A stretch of DNA of 64,000 nt from a virus, in the IMG/VR virus record IMGVR_UViG_3300037071_003688. One strand, given 5' to 3'. Shown in pieces: positions 1-58,699 of the stretch. The position numbers and the translations under genes were made by a program. The notes under the pieces were generated by a model. The model had not been told where the DNA came from, ran no database searches, and saw nothing but the letters and a program-made list of their open reading frames with translations. The stretch's first letter is position 1. The number at the start of each line of letters is the position of its first letter.

Positions 1-1023
1 GACGACATGGGCATGTCGGACAGCGACGTGGAACTCCTCAAGGACCGCGTCGTGGAGCGCAAGCGCGCCCTGTTCCAGTACCTCCTCGACAAGCGCCACG
101 GCCGCGACAACCCGCGCGGCCTCGACCGGCTCGGCAAGATCTCGGCCCGCAAGGACGCGATCAAGGCCGCGGCCGAGGGCGGCGAGTTGGACGTGACGAC
201 GGGCATGACGTGGGAGACCGCGTTGTCGCTCGGCGGCTCGAACGCGGAGACGTGGCAGAAGGTCATCCCGCAGATGGGCTACATGGCTCTGCTGCGCAAC
301 CTGCGCAACTTCGAGGACGCCAAGCTGCCCGCCAACGTCCTCATGCAGGTCGCGTCGACGCTGGCCGACCCCGAGCAGGTCGCCAAGTCGCGCCAGTTCC
401 CGTTCCGGTTCCTGTCGGCGTGGTCGGCGTCCGGCTCGATGATGTGGGGTCAGGCGCTCGAACTCGCGCTCGAAGCGTCGTGCGCCAACATCCCCGAGTT
501 CCCGGGCAAGACGCTGATCATGGTCGACGTGTCGGGTTCGATGGACGGCAAGATGTCGGCCAAGTCGACGGTGTCGCGCAAGGTCGCCGGTGCCGTATTC
601 GGCGCGGCCGTGATGAAGCGGTCGGCTCCCGGCTCGAAGCTCGGCGTGTACGCCACGCTGTGCGCCGTGCAGGACAAGCCACGCTCGGTCCTGCGCACCG
701 CCGAGGAGATCGGCAAGCTGTCGGGCGTCGGCGGTCACGGCACGAACACGTGGCCATCGACGTGGATGCTGTGGCAGGAGTACGGCCCATTCGACCGGAT
801 CCTCATCTTCACCGACGAGCAGCACCACCCATCGCACATCACGGCCGGTTCGTTCCCCAAGGACGTCCCGATCTACGTGTGGTGCCTGGGCGGCTACCGT
901 CCGGCGTCGCTCGACCTCGGCACGGGCCGCTACCTGCTCGCCGGTCTCAACGACCAGTGCTTCAAGCTGATCAAGATCCTCGAAGCCGGGTCCGAGGGAC
1001 GCTGGCCGTGGGAGGTCGACTGA
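1..1023 (+). CDS. TROVE/Ro60-like RNA-binding protein, C-terminal part (TROVE + vWA); 5' end lies outside the window
   Basis: TWETALS, MALLRNLRN and SRQFPFRFLSA are TROVE motifs, followed by the vWA MIDAS motif DVSGSM...GT...FTDEQ; frame is open from position 1. Confidence 0.9.
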   Translation, partial: DDMGMSDSDVELLKDRVVERKRALFQYLLDKRHGRDNPRGLDRLGKISARKDAIKAAAEGGELDVTTGMTWETALSLGGSNAETWQKVIPQMGYMALLRNLRNFEDAKLPANVLMQVASTLADPEQVAKSRQFPFRFLSAWSASGSMMWGQALELALEASCANIPEFPGKTLIMVDVSGSMDGKMSAKSTVSRKVAGAVFGAAVMKRSAPGSKLGVYATLCAVQDKPRSVLRTAEEIGKLSGVGGHGTNTWPSTWMLWQEYGPFDRILIFTDEQHHPSHITAGSFPKDVPIYVWCLGGYRPASLDLGTGRYLLAGLNDQCFKLIKILEAGSEGRWPWEVD

Positions 1024-32863: not shown

Positions 32864-33533
32864 TCGGCACCGGGTTCAAGTCGAGGATCGTGTCGACGTT
32901 GATCGGCATCACCTCGGACAGTTGACCCAACCAGTGTTCGGCAGCGAAGCGCGATTCGCGCCCGGGCCGACAGTTCTGGCGGACCAGTTCGAGCCGCGTC
33001 CACCAGAAGTTCCCGCCGAACATCCCGCCGACACCATCGAGGCCGGGCGGGTTCAACTCGCGGTTGCGCCACGCCTCGGCGAGCCGCTCGATGTCCGGGT
33101 CACCCTTGATCCAATGGCAGCCGACGATCGACTTGCCGTCGCACTCCAAGGCGGCGACAGCGACACGCCAGTCGACCACGCATAGCTGCTCCATCGACTG
33201 GCGCCACGGATTGTCGATCGACTCGACGCGACTCGACCCCTTGGTGTGCGTGTACAGCACGGCACCATCGTGGTCCTGCGAGAAGTCGTACAGCTTGTCG
33301 AGCGTCTCCTGCTCGAAACCCTGGGTGACCGACGCGACCGGCGTGTAGTTGACCCCGTACACGGCGAGAGCGTCGCACACCCGCTCGATGTTGTCGTCGG
33401 AGCCGACGAACCCGATCTGGAACGACGCCAACTGGTCGTAGAGACCACCGAAGCGCAGCGCGCCGATGTGCTCGTGGACGGGGATCTCCCAAGCACCATC
33501 GGCATAGCAATGGAAAAAGTGGTGTAAATCCAT
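32826..33533 (-). CDS. putative glycosyltransferase-like protein
   Basis: E..TL..L..VLY.HTKG..WR..M..GNFWW..R..AE.W motif. Confidence 0.6.
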   Translation of the reverse strand: MDLHHFFHCYADGAWEIPVHEHIGALRFGGLYDQLASFQIGFVGSDDNIERVCDALAVYGVNYTPVASVTQGFEQETLDKLYDFSQDHDGAVLYTHTKGSSRVESIDNPWRQSMEQLCVVDWRVAVAALECDGKSIVGCHWIKGDPDIERLAEAWRNRELNPPGLDGVGGMFGGNFWWTRLELVRQNCRPGRESRFAAEHWLGQLSEVMPINVDTILDLNPVPITRSNLVPLRLA

Positions 33534-34546
33534 CAGACTTGGCCGCCCTTGAAATAGTCGCTTGGTCGGGTCATACCGCGGATGTCGGCGGCGAAAGAGT
33601 CCTCCTCGTGGCTGAGTCGATTCAACATCTCCTCGAAATGTTCTGGTTCGGCCTTGATCTTGGCGGCTCCGCTACTGGTTGCTTTCTGACCAACCTGCAT
33701 CGCGAAGCGGAACGTCTCGATCGGCTCGCCGGTTCGCTCCACGTAGGCGCGTAGCGTCTTTAGATTCGGGAAGACGCCATGCTCGTCAGGCAGACCGCTG
33801 ATGCGCTGCTCCGCGATCCTGTGATAGTTGGCGTTCAACTCGGCGCCGAGGAACGTGCGGCTGAGATCCCTGGCCACGACGGCGACCGTTCCGGTCCCCA
33901 TGTACGGGTCGAGAACGACGGCGCCCTCGTTCGTCGTTGACAGGACGATCCGAGCGATCATGTCTTCGGGAAACTGGCATGGGTGGACCGTCTGTTCCTC
34001 GTGATTGTGTTTCACGTTTCGGAACACCCAGATGTCACCCGGGTTCTTCCCATCCGGGTGGCACGTCAACTCGCCTTTGCGATCACCCGTCCACGCTCTC
34101 TTGTTCCGGTATTTCTGCGGGACTCTGATGGGGTCGAGGTTGAACGTGTAGTCGTCACCCTTGGTGAACCACAGCACCGTCTCATGTCGCGCGCTGAACT
34201 TCCTTCGTCCGTGAAGCCCATGCTGACGAACCCAAATGATGCGGTTGCGGGGCCGAAGGCCAAGGTCTTCGAGAATCGGAAAGAAACGGACATCGAGTGG
34301 GATGAGCGTTCCGTCATCGGAGTGTGCTCCCACCTGCCAGAAGATCGAGGCTCCGTCATCCATGACCCGCACACACTCACGAAGTACCTCCGATTGTCGG
34401 GCGAGGTAGTCCGAAAGTGTCAACTTCGACTCGTACGACTTGCCGATGTTGTAAGGCGGCGATGAAACGACAAGATCAACGGACCCGTCGTCCAACGCCG
34501 CTAGGAGTTCCATACAGTCGCCTTGGTGGATCCGATTATGGAGCAT
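33533..34546 (-). CDS. N4-cytosine/N6-adenine DNA methyltransferase (beta class)
   Basis: GDC..SSPPYN..HPCQFP..DPYMGTGT..GAELN. Confidence 0.92.
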   Translation of the reverse strand: MLHNRIHQGDCMELLAALDDGSVDLVVSSPPYNIGKSYESKLTLSDYLARQSEVLRECVRVMDDGASIFWQVGAHSDDGTLIPLDVRFFPILEDLGLRPRNRIIWVRQHGLHGRRKFSARHETVLWFTKGDDYTFNLDPIRVPQKYRNKRAWTGDRKGELTCHPDGKNPGDIWVFRNVKHNHEEQTVHPCQFPEDMIARIVLSTTNEGAVVLDPYMGTGTVAVVARDLSRTFLGAELNANYHRIAEQRISGLPDEHGVFPNLKTLRAYVERTGEPIETFRFAMQVGQKATSSGAAKIKAEPEHFEEMLNRLSHEEDSFAADIRGMTRPSDYFKGGQV

Positions 34547-34556
34547 CGGACTATGG

Positions 34557-35012
34557 TTGCAGACCGTGACCACCGAGGCGTACCCGACGACTCCCTGCAT
34601 CGAGATCCCGGAGGCAGTCCGCATCAAGAGTGGGCGGGCCAAGGGCTACGGCTGGATGTGGTACACCGATGGCAGCGGTCGCCGCCGGAACCAGTACGTC
34701 CATCGCCGGATCGCTGAACGCATGGTCGGTCGAACCCTTGAACGGCACGAGGAGGTCATGCACCTGTGCGACAACCCACCCTGCTTCCGGGGCGACCATC
34801 TCGTTGTCGGCAGCCACGCCGAGAACCTTCGGATGGCGGCGAGCCGGGGAATGAATCAAGGCGAGCGCAACGGCCAAGCGAAGCTGACAACCGCCGAGGT
34901 CGCTGCCATCCGCTCGCGAAGCGAGAGCGCCCGCGTCCTGGCAGCCGAATACGGGGTCAATGCGAGTCACATCTACAAGATCCGATCCGGGCGTCGGAGG
35001 GCTGGGGCGTGA
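34557..35012 (+). CDS. HNH homing endonuclease with a C-terminal DNA-binding region
   Basis: GYG..YVHR..VMHLCDNP.C...HL..G...EN..GERNGQAKLT. Confidence 0.88.
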   Translation: MQTVTTEAYPTTPCIEIPEAVRIKSGRAKGYGWMWYTDGSGRRRNQYVHRRIAERMVGRTLERHEEVMHLCDNPPCFRGDHLVVGSHAENLRMAASRGMNQGERNGQAKLTTAEVAAIRSRSESARVLAAEYGVNASHIYKIRSGRRRAGA

Positions 35013-35755
35013 GAACCGAGTGTTACGTCACGATTCATGACCAAGATCTGGTGCTTGAAGCCGAGCGGACAGGGCAGTTCGACTTGCTCTCACATACGTA
35101 CCTGTTCGTGGGTCATCGCCCGGTGGATCGAATCCCGGCAGACGTCAAGGTCGTCGTCGCGCGTGACTACAGCCCCAATGTTGAGCATCTGCCAATGTTC
35201 TACGACTTCACCGGCTGGCATGTGCTCGCGAGCCACGAGTTGATCACGGCCGACCATGCGATCATGTTGCAGTACGACATGTGGATCATCGACTCCGAGA
35301 TCGAGACCAAGGTCGACGCGCTGCTCGACGCGGCGCCGGGGATGGTGGCGTTCAACGCCGGGTACTGGGGGCCGAACTGGATGCTGCACATCCCGGGCTT
35401 CGAGGAGGCGTACCGGGCCGGGCTGGCAACGGTCGGTGTCAACCCCGACGACTTCGGGCCGTTCAACGAGTGGCCATGCACACAGGGCACCGCCTGGCGC
35501 ACGAAGACGTTGACGGAGTTCATGATCTGGTTCGCGCCGATGTTCGAGGTGTTCAAGGATCACGTCTTCGCCGGGCATCTCGCCGAACGGACCGTGAAGG
35601 CGTACCTCGCGGCGAACGGGATCCCCGAGCAATACCTGCTCGGAGCGATCGCCCACGAAGCCGCCGACATGCACGGCACCGGCGCTTTGATGCGCGGCGA
35701 CCGGGCGCTCTACGAAGCGCGCAACGCCGAGTTCATGCGCGGCGTGCCGTCGTGA
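35009..35755 (+). CDS. putative glycosyltransferase-like protein
   Basis: LQYD...GH..ER motifs; sits among sugar-modification genes; GTGA-coupled start. Confidence 0.55.
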   Translation: MRTECYVTIHDQDLVLEAERTGQFDLLSHTYLFVGHRPVDRIPADVKVVVARDYSPNVEHLPMFYDFTGWHVLASHELITADHAIMLQYDMWIIDSEIETKVDALLDAAPGMVAFNAGYWGPNWMLHIPGFEEAYRAGLATVGVNPDDFGPFNEWPCTQGTAWRTKTLTEFMIWFAPMFEVFKDHVFAGHLAERTVKAYLAANGIPEQYLLGAIAHEAADMHGTGALMRGDRALYEARNAEFMRGVPS

Positions 35756-36543
35756 CCCCGGCGGCGCTCCGATACCCCGGATCGAAGTGGACGCTCGCAG
35801 CGACGATCGTCAACCAGTTTGAGCCGCACCGTCACTACATCGAACCGTTCTTCGGATCCGGCGCCGTGTTCTTCACCAAACCCCCAGTCCCGCACGAGGT
35901 GATCAACGACCGGAACGGCTCGGTCACCAACCTGTTCCGGGTGCTTCGCGACCGAACCGACGATCTGCGCTGGGCGCTTGAAGCGACACCGTGGAGCCGC
36001 GACGAATACGACCAGTGCGACACCGCGACCGTGGACGAACTCGAAGCGGCCCGCCGATTCGTCGTCCGATGCTGGCAGGCGCACGCCAGCGATCTCGCCA
36101 AGAAGACCGGATGGAAGAACCGGGGACCGAGCCAACGGGCGGCAGGCATGTCGCACCGTTGGAACAAGGTCCCCGCACAACTGCGACAGATCGCGTGGCG
36201 ATTGAAGGACGCCGAGATCGAGAACCGCGACGCACTCGAAGTCATCGAACGCCACGCCGGTCCTGACTGTCTCATCTACGCCGACCCGCCGTATCCGCAC
36301 GATGTGCGCACGCAGCCGATGTACGGCGACGAGATGTCCGACGCTGAACATCTCAAGCTGATCGCCGCGCTCCTCAATCATCCCGGCCCGGTCGTGGTGA
36401 GCGGCTACGCCAACCCGATGTACGACGAAGCGTTCGCTGACTGGCGGCGCCTGATCATCACCGCCCCCAAAGCCGAGAAGGCCGCCGTGCGCGCGGAGGT
36501 TCTTTGGGTCAAGCCGGGGATGAGCCAGGGGACGCTCTGCTGA
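35752..36543 (+). CDS. Dam-like (D12 class) DNA adenine methyltransferase
   Basis: RYPGSK..YIEPFFGSG..ND..YADPPY. Confidence 0.92.
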   Translation: MTPAALRYPGSKWTLAATIVNQFEPHRHYIEPFFGSGAVFFTKPPVPHEVINDRNGSVTNLFRVLRDRTDDLRWALEATPWSRDEYDQCDTATVDELEAARRFVVRCWQAHASDLAKKTGWKNRGPSQRAAGMSHRWNKVPAQLRQIAWRLKDAEIENRDALEVIERHAGPDCLIYADPPYPHDVRTQPMYGDEMSDAEHLKLIAALLNHPGPVVVSGYANPMYDEAFADWRRLIITAPKAEKAAVRAEVLWVKPGMSQGTLC

Positions 36544-39358: not shown

Positions 39359-39398
39359 GTGAAATGTGTTGACAAACCCTGGACGTTCTGCGCATAAT
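39359..39398 (+). promoter_or_regulatory. repeated sigma-70-like promoter driving the ncRNA/tRNA array
   Basis: TTGACA(39369)-N18-CATAAT. Confidence 0.85.
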
Positions 39399-39441
39399 AC
39401 TGGTGGAAGGAGAAGGGAGTTGGGGTTCTTCTCCTCCGAGA

Positions 39442-39603
39442 GTTCCTGTGCTGTCAGCGTCGTCTCAACCCGGCGCCGAGCAGACTCACGGTCCGTGCAC
39501 GGAGCGTGAGAGAAGGTCCGTGGCCCACGGCACCTGGTGGCCACCAGGGTGGGTACGACCGGTTAGCGGTTCGAGTCCGCTACGGCGCTGAGAGCACAGG
39601 AAC
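39442..39603 (+). ncRNA. tRNA-like structured RNA with no recognisable anticodon arm
   Basis: about 22-bp terminal stem, D-like arm, two long hairpins, T-arm AGCGG-TTCGAGT-CCGCT. Confidence 0.65.
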
Positions 39604-39611
39604 CGCCCAAT

Positions 39612-39684
39612 GATGCTGTAGCTCAGTGGAAAGAGCACCGGCTTGCGAAGCCGGTTGTCGCAGGTTCGAGTCCTGCCAGCGTCA
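39612..39684 (+). tRNA. tRNA-Arg(GCG)
   Basis: cloverleaf, anticodon arm CCGGC-TTGCGAA-GCCGG. Confidence 0.85.
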
Positions 39685-39687
39685 CTA

Positions 39688-39824
39688 CTCCACCGCAAAG
39701 GTTGGCTTAGAAGCAGCCATCCTCTAAGGAGTGACACCCGAGTCCGGACGGTCCGGTGGGAGCCAGGGAACTGGTGAGGAACCTATAGAGCCTCGTCTTA
39801 GGCGTAACAGCACATGCGGTGGGG
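39688..39824 (+). ncRNA. 23S rRNA H43/H44 (L11-binding, GTPase-associated centre) mimic with an insertion
   Basis: GGTTGGCTTAGAAGCAGCCATCCTCTAAGGAGT...GCGTAACAGCAC closed by a 10-bp stem. Confidence 0.8.
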
Positions 39825-39827
39825 CGA

Positions 39828-39900
39828 CCGAATGTGGCGCAGTTGGTAGCGCACCTGGTTTGGGACCAGGGGGTCGGGAGTTCGAGCCTCTCCATTCGGA
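39828..39900 (+). tRNA. tRNA-Pro(TGG)
   Basis: cloverleaf, CCTGG-TTTGGGA-CCAGG. Confidence 0.9.
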
Positions 39901-39977
39901 CGAGCAGTTCGGCGAGACTTGAATGACCCGCTGAAAACCCGGGGTGCGGCCCGGGCGTCGAACTGCCAGAATGAACT

Positions 39978-40050: not shown

Positions 40051-40118
40051 CCCAAGGCCCAGGCCCGAGTCACCAGCCTGGGACCGTCGCCGGAACGCGT
40101 GGCGGCGGGACAGAAAAT

Positions 40119-40516: not shown

Positions 40517-40556
40517 GTCAACAGTCTTGACAAACCCTAGTCCGTCTGCGCATAAT
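40517..40556 (+). promoter_or_regulatory. repeated sigma-70-like promoter
   Basis: GTCAA-N5-TTGACA-N18-CATAAT. Confidence 0.85.
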
Positions 40557-57562: not shown

Positions 57563-58699
57563 ATGGGCGCAGTGATCGTGCTACTCCCCGCCGACCCGGC
57601 GGCGCTCGCAGCGGACGACGGCGACCCGGCGGAGGAACTCCACGTCACCCTGCTGTACCTGTCCGACGAGACGCTGCCGCCCGACCAGTACGCGCTCGTG
57701 TCCGAAGCTGTCGCCTCGTGCGCGTCGATGCCGCCGATCGACGCCGACGTGTCCGGCGCCGGGATGCTCGGCAAGGACGCCGCGATCGTGCTGATCCTCG
57801 AATCGCAAGAGATCATGGATGTGCGCGCGCAACTCAAGGACGCCTGCGCGGCGTTGATGAACGACGCCGTCCAGTTCCCGTCGTTCATCCCGCATCTCAC
57901 CATCGGCTACGCCGACTCCGTCGAGCACGGCCAATCCCTCCTCGATCACTGCCTGCCGATGGTCGGCGACGTGATCACGCTCGACCGCCTCGCCTGCTTG
58001 AACGGCGACGAACGCCACGAAACCCCGCTCGGCGCCGCCGCCGAACCCGCCGAGGTCGACATCGAGTCCGATGTCTACTCGGAACCGATCTTCACATTCG
58101 CCGCCCCGGCAGCGGTCCCGCCGCCGGTGCCGGGCGCGGCTGCTCCCGCCCCGGGTCCCGCCCCGGGCGCGGGAGCACGTCCGAAGCGACAGGTGATCCT
58201 GGTCGGGATGCCGGTGGTCGATCCGAGCAAGGTGCCGTACAAGCCGACCGGCCTGCCGTACCAGTCACCGGAGCCGTACGTCGCGCTGCTCGAAGTCAAG
58301 CTCCGCCAGAACGAGGTCCCCGAGCAACTCGCCCAGGTGCTCGGGGACGTCCACCCGCCACCCGCCACGTCGACGGCGACGAAGTCGCTGACCGCATCGG
58401 ACACACGCCCGGCACGACGCGCGGTGCTGATGGACCCGGCACCATTGGCCGCGGCGTCCGACGCGATCAAGGCCGCGCTCGAACCGTACGGCACGACCGT
58501 CGATGACTACCCGTTCGTCGTGCAACTCGGCAACGAAGGCATCAGCAAAGCGGACGTGGTGGCATTGAAGGGCCAAGCGGTCGACTTCGCCGGACTGATC
58601 GCAGTCCTCCCGGACGGCACCGTGATCCACGAGGACAAAGGCCAGAGCGCGCCATCGACCACTGAGCCGACGACGGCCGATACTGTTGCGGCGACGTAG
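57563..58699 (+). CDS. 2H phosphoesterase (2'-5' RNA ligase-like)
   Basis: two HxT motifs: LHVTL and PHLTI. Confidence 0.85.
   Translation: MGAVIVLLPADPAALAADDGDPAEELHVTLLYLSDETLPPDQYALVSEAVASCASMPPIDADVSGAGMLGKDAAIVLILESQEIMDVRAQLKDACAALMNDAVQFPSFIPHLTIGYADSVEHGQSLLDHCLPMVGDVITLDRLACLNGDERHETPLGAAAEPAEVDIESDVYSEPIFTFAAPAAVPPPVPGAAAPAPGPAPGAGARPKRQVILVGMPVVDPSKVPYKPTGLPYQSPEPYVALLEVKLRQNEVPEQLAQVLGDVHPPPATSTATKSLTASDTRPARRAVLMDPAPLAAASDAIKAALEPYGTTVDDYPFVVQLGNEGISKADVVALKGQAVDFAGLIAVLPDGTVIHEDKGQSAPSTTEPTTADTVAAT

Follow-up and report, generated by a model that had tools for sequence, protein, structure and literature searches.

The stretch of DNA analysed here (the window) covers 64,000 nt of a virus record from IMG/VR that is 147,492 bp long and 97% complete, and between two of its tRNA genes it carries a 137-nt RNA element (39688-39824, + strand) that resembles the GTPase-associated centre (GAC) of bacterial 23S rRNA. 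The source is an uncultured soil actinophage, because the G+C content of the genome is about 65%, the window holds a set of 32-33 tRNA genes, the portal protein shares about 30% identity with the portals of Microbacterium, Mycobacterium and Gordonia phages, and the DNA was found only in soil and rhizosphere metagenome DNA runs. The phage uses the standard genetic code and has no suppressor tRNA. Read mapping with four related soil runs gave only pile-ups on the tRNAs and real soil 23S reads on the H43 part, with no usable variants of the element.

The positions of the features are collected in Table 1. The first-pass annotation had described, from the letters of the sequence, a piece between two tRNAs in which two rRNA-like stretches, separated by a three-hairpin insert of about 70 nt, are enclosed by a 10-bp stem, and all of these parts are indeed present at 39688-39824, with gaps of only 2-3 nt to tRNA-Arg and tRNA-Pro.

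Table 1. Features of the window; positions are those of the window, and nucleotide numbers such as A1056 follow E. coli 23S rRNA.
Feature	Positions	Strand	Remarks
TROVE/Ro60 protein gene	7-1023	+	68.9 bits
DNA methyltransferase gene	33533-34642	-	upstream of the RNA operon
DNA methyltransferase gene	35281-36543	+	upstream of the RNA operon
Promoter-like site TTGACA-18-CATAAT	39369-39398	+	11/12 consensus matches; putative promoter
163-nt structured RNA	39442-39604	+	between the promoter-like site and the first tRNA
tRNA-Arg(GCG)	39612-39685	+	72 bits; the element starts 3 nt downstream
Closing helix, 5' strand	39688-39697	+	CUCCACCGCA; equivalent of the top of H42; 39697 = E. coli 1055
A1056		+	between the closing helix 5' strand and the H43 copy
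H43 copy (E. coli 1057-1081)	39699-39723	+	AGG-U-UGGCU-UAGAAGC-AGCCA-U-CCU (stem AGG/CCU, U1060, UGGCU/AGCCA, loop UAGAAGC); A1067 = 39709
1082-1090 segment	39724-39732	+	CUAAGGAGU = CUAAG-GAGU; tertiary pair C1082-G1086, then G1087, A1088, G1089, U1090
Insert in H44, 65 nt	39733-39797	+	closing helix GAC (39733-39735) / GUC (39795-39797)
Insert hairpin 1	39737-39760	+	minimum-energy fold
Insert hairpin 2	39763-39774	+	CCAG-GGAA-CUGG; minimum-energy fold
Insert hairpin 3	39776-39794	+	GAGG...CCUC; minimum-energy fold
Linker UUAG	39798-39801	+	UUUG in nearly all relatives
Upper H44 hairpin GC-GUAACA-GC (1091-1100), then A1101, C1102, A1103	39802-39814	+	GCGUAACAGC-ACA; A1095 = 39806
Closing helix, 3' strand	39815-39824	+	UGCGGUGGGG; 10 bp with 39688-39697
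tRNA-Pro(UGG)	39828-39901	+	65 bits; directly 3' of the element
Self-complementary spacer	39902-39976	+	among tRNA-Pro, tRNA-Arg and tRNA-Ala
Self-complementary spacer	40055-40118	+	among tRNA-Pro, tRNA-Arg and tRNA-Ala
tRNA, Asp-type GUC anticodon	40193-40264	+	Rfam match, 52 bits
Second promoter-like site TTGACA-18-CATAAT	40527-40556	+	ahead of the next gene block
2H-phosphoesterase / 2'-5' RNA ligase-like gene	57563-58699	+	after the tRNA region

The promoter-like site that precedes the first tRNA block is one of four such sites in 2 kb, where 0.3 would be expected, and it is followed by a block of RNA genes, i.e., a Y-RNA-like RNA, tRNA-Arg, the GAC mimic, tRNA-Pro and then four more tRNA genes. 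The hexamers and the spacing of the second site in Table 1 are identical to those of the first. In the 163-nt structured RNA, GUUCCUGUGCU and AGCACAGGAAC form a long terminal stem, GCGGUUCGAGUCCGC resembles the T-arm of a tRNA, and the motif GGUCCG occurs twice; the 211-nt stretch containing it (39401-39611) folds with a z-score of -4.3, and in Rfam only a weak YrlA match was obtained. The same phage encodes a TROVE/Ro60 protein, and this RNA is probably a phage Y-RNA-like RNA with that protein as its Ro partner. The two spacers listed in Table 1 are long and self-complementary (e.g., GCAGUUCG...CGAACUGC), and could represent additional small RNAs or hairpins for processing. The tRNA with the GUC anticodon, which has an odd T-loop, was missed by ARAGORN and brings the total to 33 tRNA genes. 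The two DNA methyltransferase genes are of the N6_N4_Mtase and D12 class. In Xanthomonas phage XacN1 a gene annotated as 2'-5' RNA ligase (L317 826-1476) lies directly upstream of the GAC-mimic RNA, and the occurrence of such genes in both phages may be a coincidence or a link to RNA repair.

In actinobacterial 23S rRNA the corresponding stretch reads CCAGG-AGG-U-UGGCUUAGAAGCAGCCA-C-CCU-UGAAA-GAGU-GCGUAAUAGC-UCA-CUGG. The H43 stem of the window is the same as the H43 stem of this rRNA, whereas the whole closing helix, C1082-G1086 (U-A in the rRNA), U1083 (G in the rRNA), C1097 and A1101 (U in the rRNA) differ, as do the insert and the linker. The earlier remark that the loops are kept and the stems differ is therefore right for the closing helix and for 1082-1086, 1083, 1097 and 1101, but wrong for the H43 stem. 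Unlike genuine 23S, the locus has tRNAs on both sides and an H44 that is interrupted by a 65-nt insert; no LSU match was found in Rfam up to an E-value of 10, nor any further 23S sequence around the element. Chance resemblance is excluded, since the 15-mer GGCTTAGAAGCAGCC occurs a single time in the window at zero mismatches, and the element scores 101.4 bits (E about 1e-26) against a covariance model built from its relatives, as the sole match in the whole 147-kb genome, where it is thus single-copy.

The relatives were collected in three pattern scans of IMG/VR and one genome scan, and after de-duplication at least 128 distinct full-length relatives remained, with lengths of 105-410 nt and a median of about 196 nt, and the element of the window is among the smallest members of the family. 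An exact IMG/VR scan with a 17-mer of H43 gave at least 117 loci, nearly all of which are non-rRNA, short self-closed elements of the same plan, while the family-specific 3' half TTTGGCGTAAYAGCACA, a pattern absent from real 23S, gave at least 120 loci. In 185,579 species genomes the latter pattern was found in 106 places. True elements account for about two dozen of these and lie for the most part on contigs of MAGs from many phyla, with a few in isolates, and the rest are chance matches in coding DNA. Four cultured phages, namely Pseudomonas phage pf16, Xanthomonas phage XacN1, Cronobacter phage GAP32 and Aeromonas phage 4_4572, carry full-length, unannotated members according to covariance model R1, which together with alignments A1-A3 defines the phage GAC-mimic RNA family. 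These members are located at about 29.4-29.6 kb in pf16 (KU873925), about 150.4 kb in XacN1 (AP018399), about 289.5 kb in GAP32 (JN882285) and about 75.1 kb in 4_4572 (MK813943). Well-aligned full-length matches score 62-116 bits with R1, and phage elements 81-116 bits; the real GACs of 61 Actinomycetes genomes mostly score 41-54 bits, a few of them less, and are always 64 nt long and without an insert.

When 50,697 phage records were searched with the element by BLASTN, the matches were limited to the 33-36-nt H43 part, which is why BLAST alone misses the family. The match in Paenibacillus phage Pd_22F was rejected as a member, as it is a plain rRNA-like piece without the insert; this piece (MZ092003, at about 84.0 kb; L316 1490-1553) lies near the end of an 86-kb record, has U1101 and continues as 23S does, and could stem from host rRNA DNA or from the end of an assembly. 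Rfam 15 contains no family for the element at gathering thresholds or at E-values up to 10, and the searchable full-text literature gave us no account of a GAC mimic in phages; this is an RNA family without a description found in either source.

All relatives follow a common plan, in which the insert is always placed between 1090 and 1091, position 1101 is A instead of the U of rRNA (60/60 and 67/67 members), and a UUUG linker is present. The window departs from this linker by one base. Its UUAG is rare, with 7 viral contigs compared with more than 120 for UUUG, and the score with the full model is still 101 bits. The other features of the family are all found in the window: a self-closing helix directly flanking 1056/1103, the H43 copy, the 1082-1086 pair, GAGU, the insert site with its own closing helix, A1101, the H44 loop GUAAYA, and the location in a virus genome on the strand of the adjacent tRNAs. 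A1101, GAGU, U1083, the UUUG linker and the position of the insert are common to phages of Gammaproteobacteria, Firmicutes, Bacteroidota-type and other hosts, and, because these signatures are shared by phages of unrelated hosts, the family looks like one old lineage and not like repeated captures of host rRNA.

The inserts are about 40-340 nt long, and their sequence is not conserved. About one third of them contain a conserved hairpin, CACC-CCN-tetraloop-N'GG-UAAGG, near the 3' end, and the insert of the window carries a similar CCAG-GGAA-CUGG-UGAGG. The collected family set holds no close relatives of the window's own insert, so its three hairpins rest on folding. In some members (L018, L034, L047, L060, L072, L077, L089, L090, L097, L104, L123 and L225) a second, smaller hairpin was observed right after A1077, between the upper and lower stems of H43, which represents a second tolerated expansion site.

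As in the window, tRNAs abut both sides of some relatives. Among 126 members, the distance to a tRNA gene is at most 10 nt in 39, at most 200 nt in 61 and at most 1 kb in 78, and all 78 of the latter have the same strand as that tRNA. This adjacency on the same strand fits an RNA that is freed by tRNA-processing enzymes. No conserved protein partner was found: when 1596 ORFs located up to 5 kb from 128 elements were compared all-against-all by BLASTP, none of the resulting clusters was present in more than 8 loci.

The fold is supported by covariation in the family. In a MAFFT alignment of 40 small members, 98% of the cells are paired in the proposed structure; the figure is 70% for shuffles and 33-50% for slid controls. 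Changes on both sides of a pair occur in 260 cells, compared with 80 in shuffles. Homologues with compensatory changes, for which a covariation check had been suggested together with the first-pass annotation, are thus present among the 128 relatives. All ten pairs of the closing helix covary in the family, with up to 6 pair types per position, although this helix was partly selected by our own filter; the other pairs reported here were not. Pair 1057-1081 is found in the family alignment as AU102 / CG18 and pair 1058-1080 as UA51 / GC41 / AU27 / CG4, each of the three insert-closing pairs occurs as 4-6 standard pair types (GC, AU, UA and CG among them), and pair 1082-1086, a feature of the GAC tertiary fold, is found as UA57 / CG38 / AU17 (n = 128). 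In a mutual-information scan over all variable core columns, the top signals were model pairs only, followed by a triple-like signal of 1056 with pair 1082-1086, where G1056 goes with U1082-A1086 and A1056 with C1082-G1086; the form present in the window, A1056 with C1082-G1086, ranks second in frequency. Folded by itself, the lone sequence does not give the GAC fold at minimum energy (z-score -1.9) and pairs CUAAG (1082-1086) with CUUAG, i.e., with the last base of the insert helix and the linker.

Since 67 members were found only via the 3' half, their 5' half is free of search bias. In this set U1060, A1088, G1071, C1072, A1077, A1084, A1085, G1087, G1089 and U1090 are 96-100% conserved, and GAGU (1087-1090) is invariant. 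The most variable loop bases are A1067 (A50/G11/C4/U1), G1068 (G48/A18) and A1070 (A51/G15).

These results decide the question of whether the element could be a decaying fragment of host 23S or a chance resemblance, to which the 33 nt that are identical or nearly so to real 23S rRNA might point. The element has its own closing helix, flanking tRNAs and no further 23S sequence, its derived signatures are common to 128 relatives with compensatory changes, and the inserts are no closer to 23S than shuffled controls. To this explanation we would give practically no credence, and the covariation and family data refute it. The idea that the insert is a copy of other 23S helices was likewise rejected (Salmonella 23S gave 101 weak hits, against 81 for shuffled inserts, with no clustering), and a comparison of the inserts with the flanks of the actinobacterial 23S gave nothing significant. 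The earlier view that the locus holds a free-standing mimic of H42-H44 under selection, and not an rRNA remnant, is thus borne out by the family-wide covariation and the tRNA-operon context.

The same data bear on the proposal that the GAC-like core is a mere stable scaffold or processing spacer, and that any activity resides in the variable, phage-specific insert. The range of insert lengths and the lack of conservation would agree with this, as would the many members that abut tRNAs with no spacer in between. However, the other spacers of the operon are unrelated hairpins; moreover, the tertiary bases of the GAC are invariant, 1082-1086 covaries with 1056, and loops identical to those of rRNA are kept across the phages of unrelated hosts. 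We therefore consider the scaffold proposal very improbable.

As for function, uL11 binds a 58-nt GAC fragment via its C-terminal domain (CTD), for which the tertiary fold is required, and the GAC folds autonomously (PMC6239185, PMC1802607). The contact surface of the uL11-CTD comprises 1058-1060, 1062-1065, 1075-1083 and 1088, while 1067, 1068 and 1070 face the uL11-NTD, thiostrepton and factors (PMC1802607). In the element, the contact positions of the CTD and the bases that define the fold are kept, and the insertion site 1090/1091 is outside the contact surface. Because the CTD contact set is preserved, the insert lies outside it and the factor-facing loop bases are the most variable ones, a uL11-binding mimic is favoured, and titration of uL11 appears to be the functional reading that fits best. 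Since 1067, 1068 and 1070 are the least conserved loop bases, the pattern fits selection for the fold and the CTD site rather than for factor docking.

We infer that the element would be transcribed from the 39369-39398 promoter together with the phage tRNAs, as a stable, non-coding RNA of about 137-143 nt, with a 5' end produced by RNase Z or by 3' trimming of tRNA-Arg and a 3' end produced by the RNase P cut at the 5' end of tRNA-Pro. This RNA folds, as the covariation supports, into a self-closed copy of the GAC with a peripheral three-hairpin domain grafted into H44 between 1090 and 1091, and most likely would bind a natural ligand of the GAC, with uL11 as the first candidate because its C-terminal domain reads exactly such a tertiary fold. 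Binding could then change the amount of uL11, or of another GAC-directed factor, that is available to host ribosomes in infection, and a lower uL11 occupancy would be expected to blunt RelA activation and to shift RF1-dependent termination; these effects of low uL11 are those of rplK/relC mutants. To hypothesize, a stable phage RNA that is processed with tRNAs and, as a replica of the GAC, binds a GAC ligand off the ribosome, most obviously uL11, is the explanation towards which we lean, with a confidence only slightly better than even. Several points were counted against it: we know of no phage example of a gain from sequestering uL11, the phage genome contains no uL11, bL12, MazG or RelA/SpoT genes that would hint at the pathway, and there are the lack of a conserved protein partner, the UUAG linker and the fold preference of the single sequence.

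Both hairpin loops, including A1095 and G1093-U1094, are conserved beyond what binding of the uL11-CTD needs, and for this reason another loop-reading ligand may be the real target. The main rival to the uL11 mimic is a decoy for attackers of the GAC, such as an rRNA-modifying or rRNA-cleaving toxin, a defence effector (e.g., Tre23) or thiopeptides, where the free copies would spare the ribosomes. Phage tRNA arrays are a known site of counter-defence RNAs, and the host class of the window phage includes thiopeptide producers, both of which count for such a decoy, as does the fact that A1067 and A1095 are both kept in the window. On the other hand, we know of no anti-phage system aimed at the GAC and found none in the literature, and an attacker that concerns phages of so many phyla and habitats would have to be nearly universal. 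A bacterial toxin aimed at exactly this domain does exist, namely the ADP-ribosyltransferase Tre23, which modifies H44 at 1095-1098, but it is an interbacterial T6SS toxin (PMC8661411). In the members that were not selected for H43, A1067 is missing in 24%, which speaks against general thiopeptide binding. On balance we regard a decoy as unlikely, though as an explanation to be taken seriously. Of the ideas put forward in the first-pass annotation, those of RelA and of a toxin decoy are possible, while a thiopeptide sponge is unlikely as a general role of the family because of the missing A1067 and the many habitats of the phages. Binding of uL10 is also unlikely, because this protein binds lower H42, whereas the element copies no more of H42 than its top, in the form of a plain helix.

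The ligand could also be a factor that docks at the GAC and not uL11 itself, i.e., a translational GTPase, RelA, a release factor (through uL11) or the tRNA elbow, and the RNA would then tune elongation, termination (UAG versus UGA) or the stringent response. The GAC touches these ligands on the ribosome. However, an isolated GAC is without the sarcin-ricin loop and the uL10-bL12 stalk, which are the sources of factor affinity, the factor-touching positions 1067, 1068 and 1070 are the most variable of the loops, and the standard code and absence of suppressor tRNAs in the window phage count against this explanation as well. In favour of a release factor, domain 1 of RF1 contacts the uL11-NTD (PMC3677378). 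A tRNA(CUA) of the amber-suppressor type was observed near 8 of the 128 family loci (L008, L026, L082, L138, L143, L156, L166 and L214), a UUA tRNA near 1 locus and a UCA tRNA near none, which could be a lead in the same direction but has no baseline for comparison. Altogether, we find a docking factor as the ligand improbable.

If the uL11-binding explanation is extended to large tRNA-carrying phages of many bacterial phyla, an abundant GAC replica might withhold uL11 from ribosomes or strip it from them, so that infection would phenocopy relC (rplK), blind the RelA-dependent stringent response and shift the balance of RF1 and RF2. As a general scheme this is a speculation that we hold to be rather doubtful, but if the uL11-withholding reading were true, it would be a takeover of a ribosomal functional site by RNA only. 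If the mimic itself is what it appears to be, phages carry a whole functional domain of rRNA as a free-standing RNA, and would have an RNA route onto the translation machinery in addition to phage-borne tRNAs, tmRNA and ribosomal proteins. The family would then also offer a natural self-stabilised GAC, with the insert, the UUUG linker and A1101 as stabilisers, that could serve structural studies and antibiotic research involving thiopeptides and uL11. The family is large, and cultured phages that infect Pseudomonas, Xanthomonas, Cronobacter and Aeromonas carry it, so its function is directly testable.

The setting of the element is that of other structured phage RNAs beside tRNAs, such as GOLLD, ROOL and the bacterial Y RNAs (YrlA), to which it has no relation in sequence or structure. 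Species 1 and 2 of T4 (rnaC and rnaD) are likewise small stable RNAs beside phage tRNA genes and are presumably freed by tRNA processing; they were rejected as members of the family, as R1 with filters off gave at best 8.6 bits in the T4 tRNA region, outside rnaC/rnaD. Leaders of r-protein mRNAs (the L10 leader RF00557 and the L1 site on the L11 operon mRNA) are also non-ribosomal RNAs that copy an rRNA protein-binding site, but they are cis-acting 5' UTRs of cellular r-protein operons in which only a local motif is copied, while the element is a trans-encoded phage RNA with a whole tertiary domain, no r-protein gene nearby and no Rfam match. In 6S RNA, CsrB/RsmZ, phage RNA anti-CRISPRs and the phage tRNAs that replace cleaved host tRNAs, an abundant RNA mimic competes for a ligand. 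The logic proposed here is the same, and the difference is the imitated target, a functional domain of rRNA, for which we found no description in mobile elements. The closest counterpart remains the GAC of bacterial 23S itself (E. coli 1051-1108; the 58-60-nt fragment that binds uL11 and thiostrepton). Unlike it, the element forms a free-standing gene within a phage tRNA operon, has a closing helix of unrelated sequence, and lacks lower H42, where uL10 binds, as well as all other parts of 23S. In the phage family as a whole, 40-340 nt are inserted between 1090 and 1091, the linker is UUUG/UUAG, and A1101 replaces U. Both are alike in the three-way junction, in the loops of H43 and H44, and in the tertiary bases U1060, A1088, G1071 and C1072, the 1082-1086 pair and a purine at 1056 opposite A1103, and the GAC of 23S is, in likeness to the element, an autonomous, self-folding domain.
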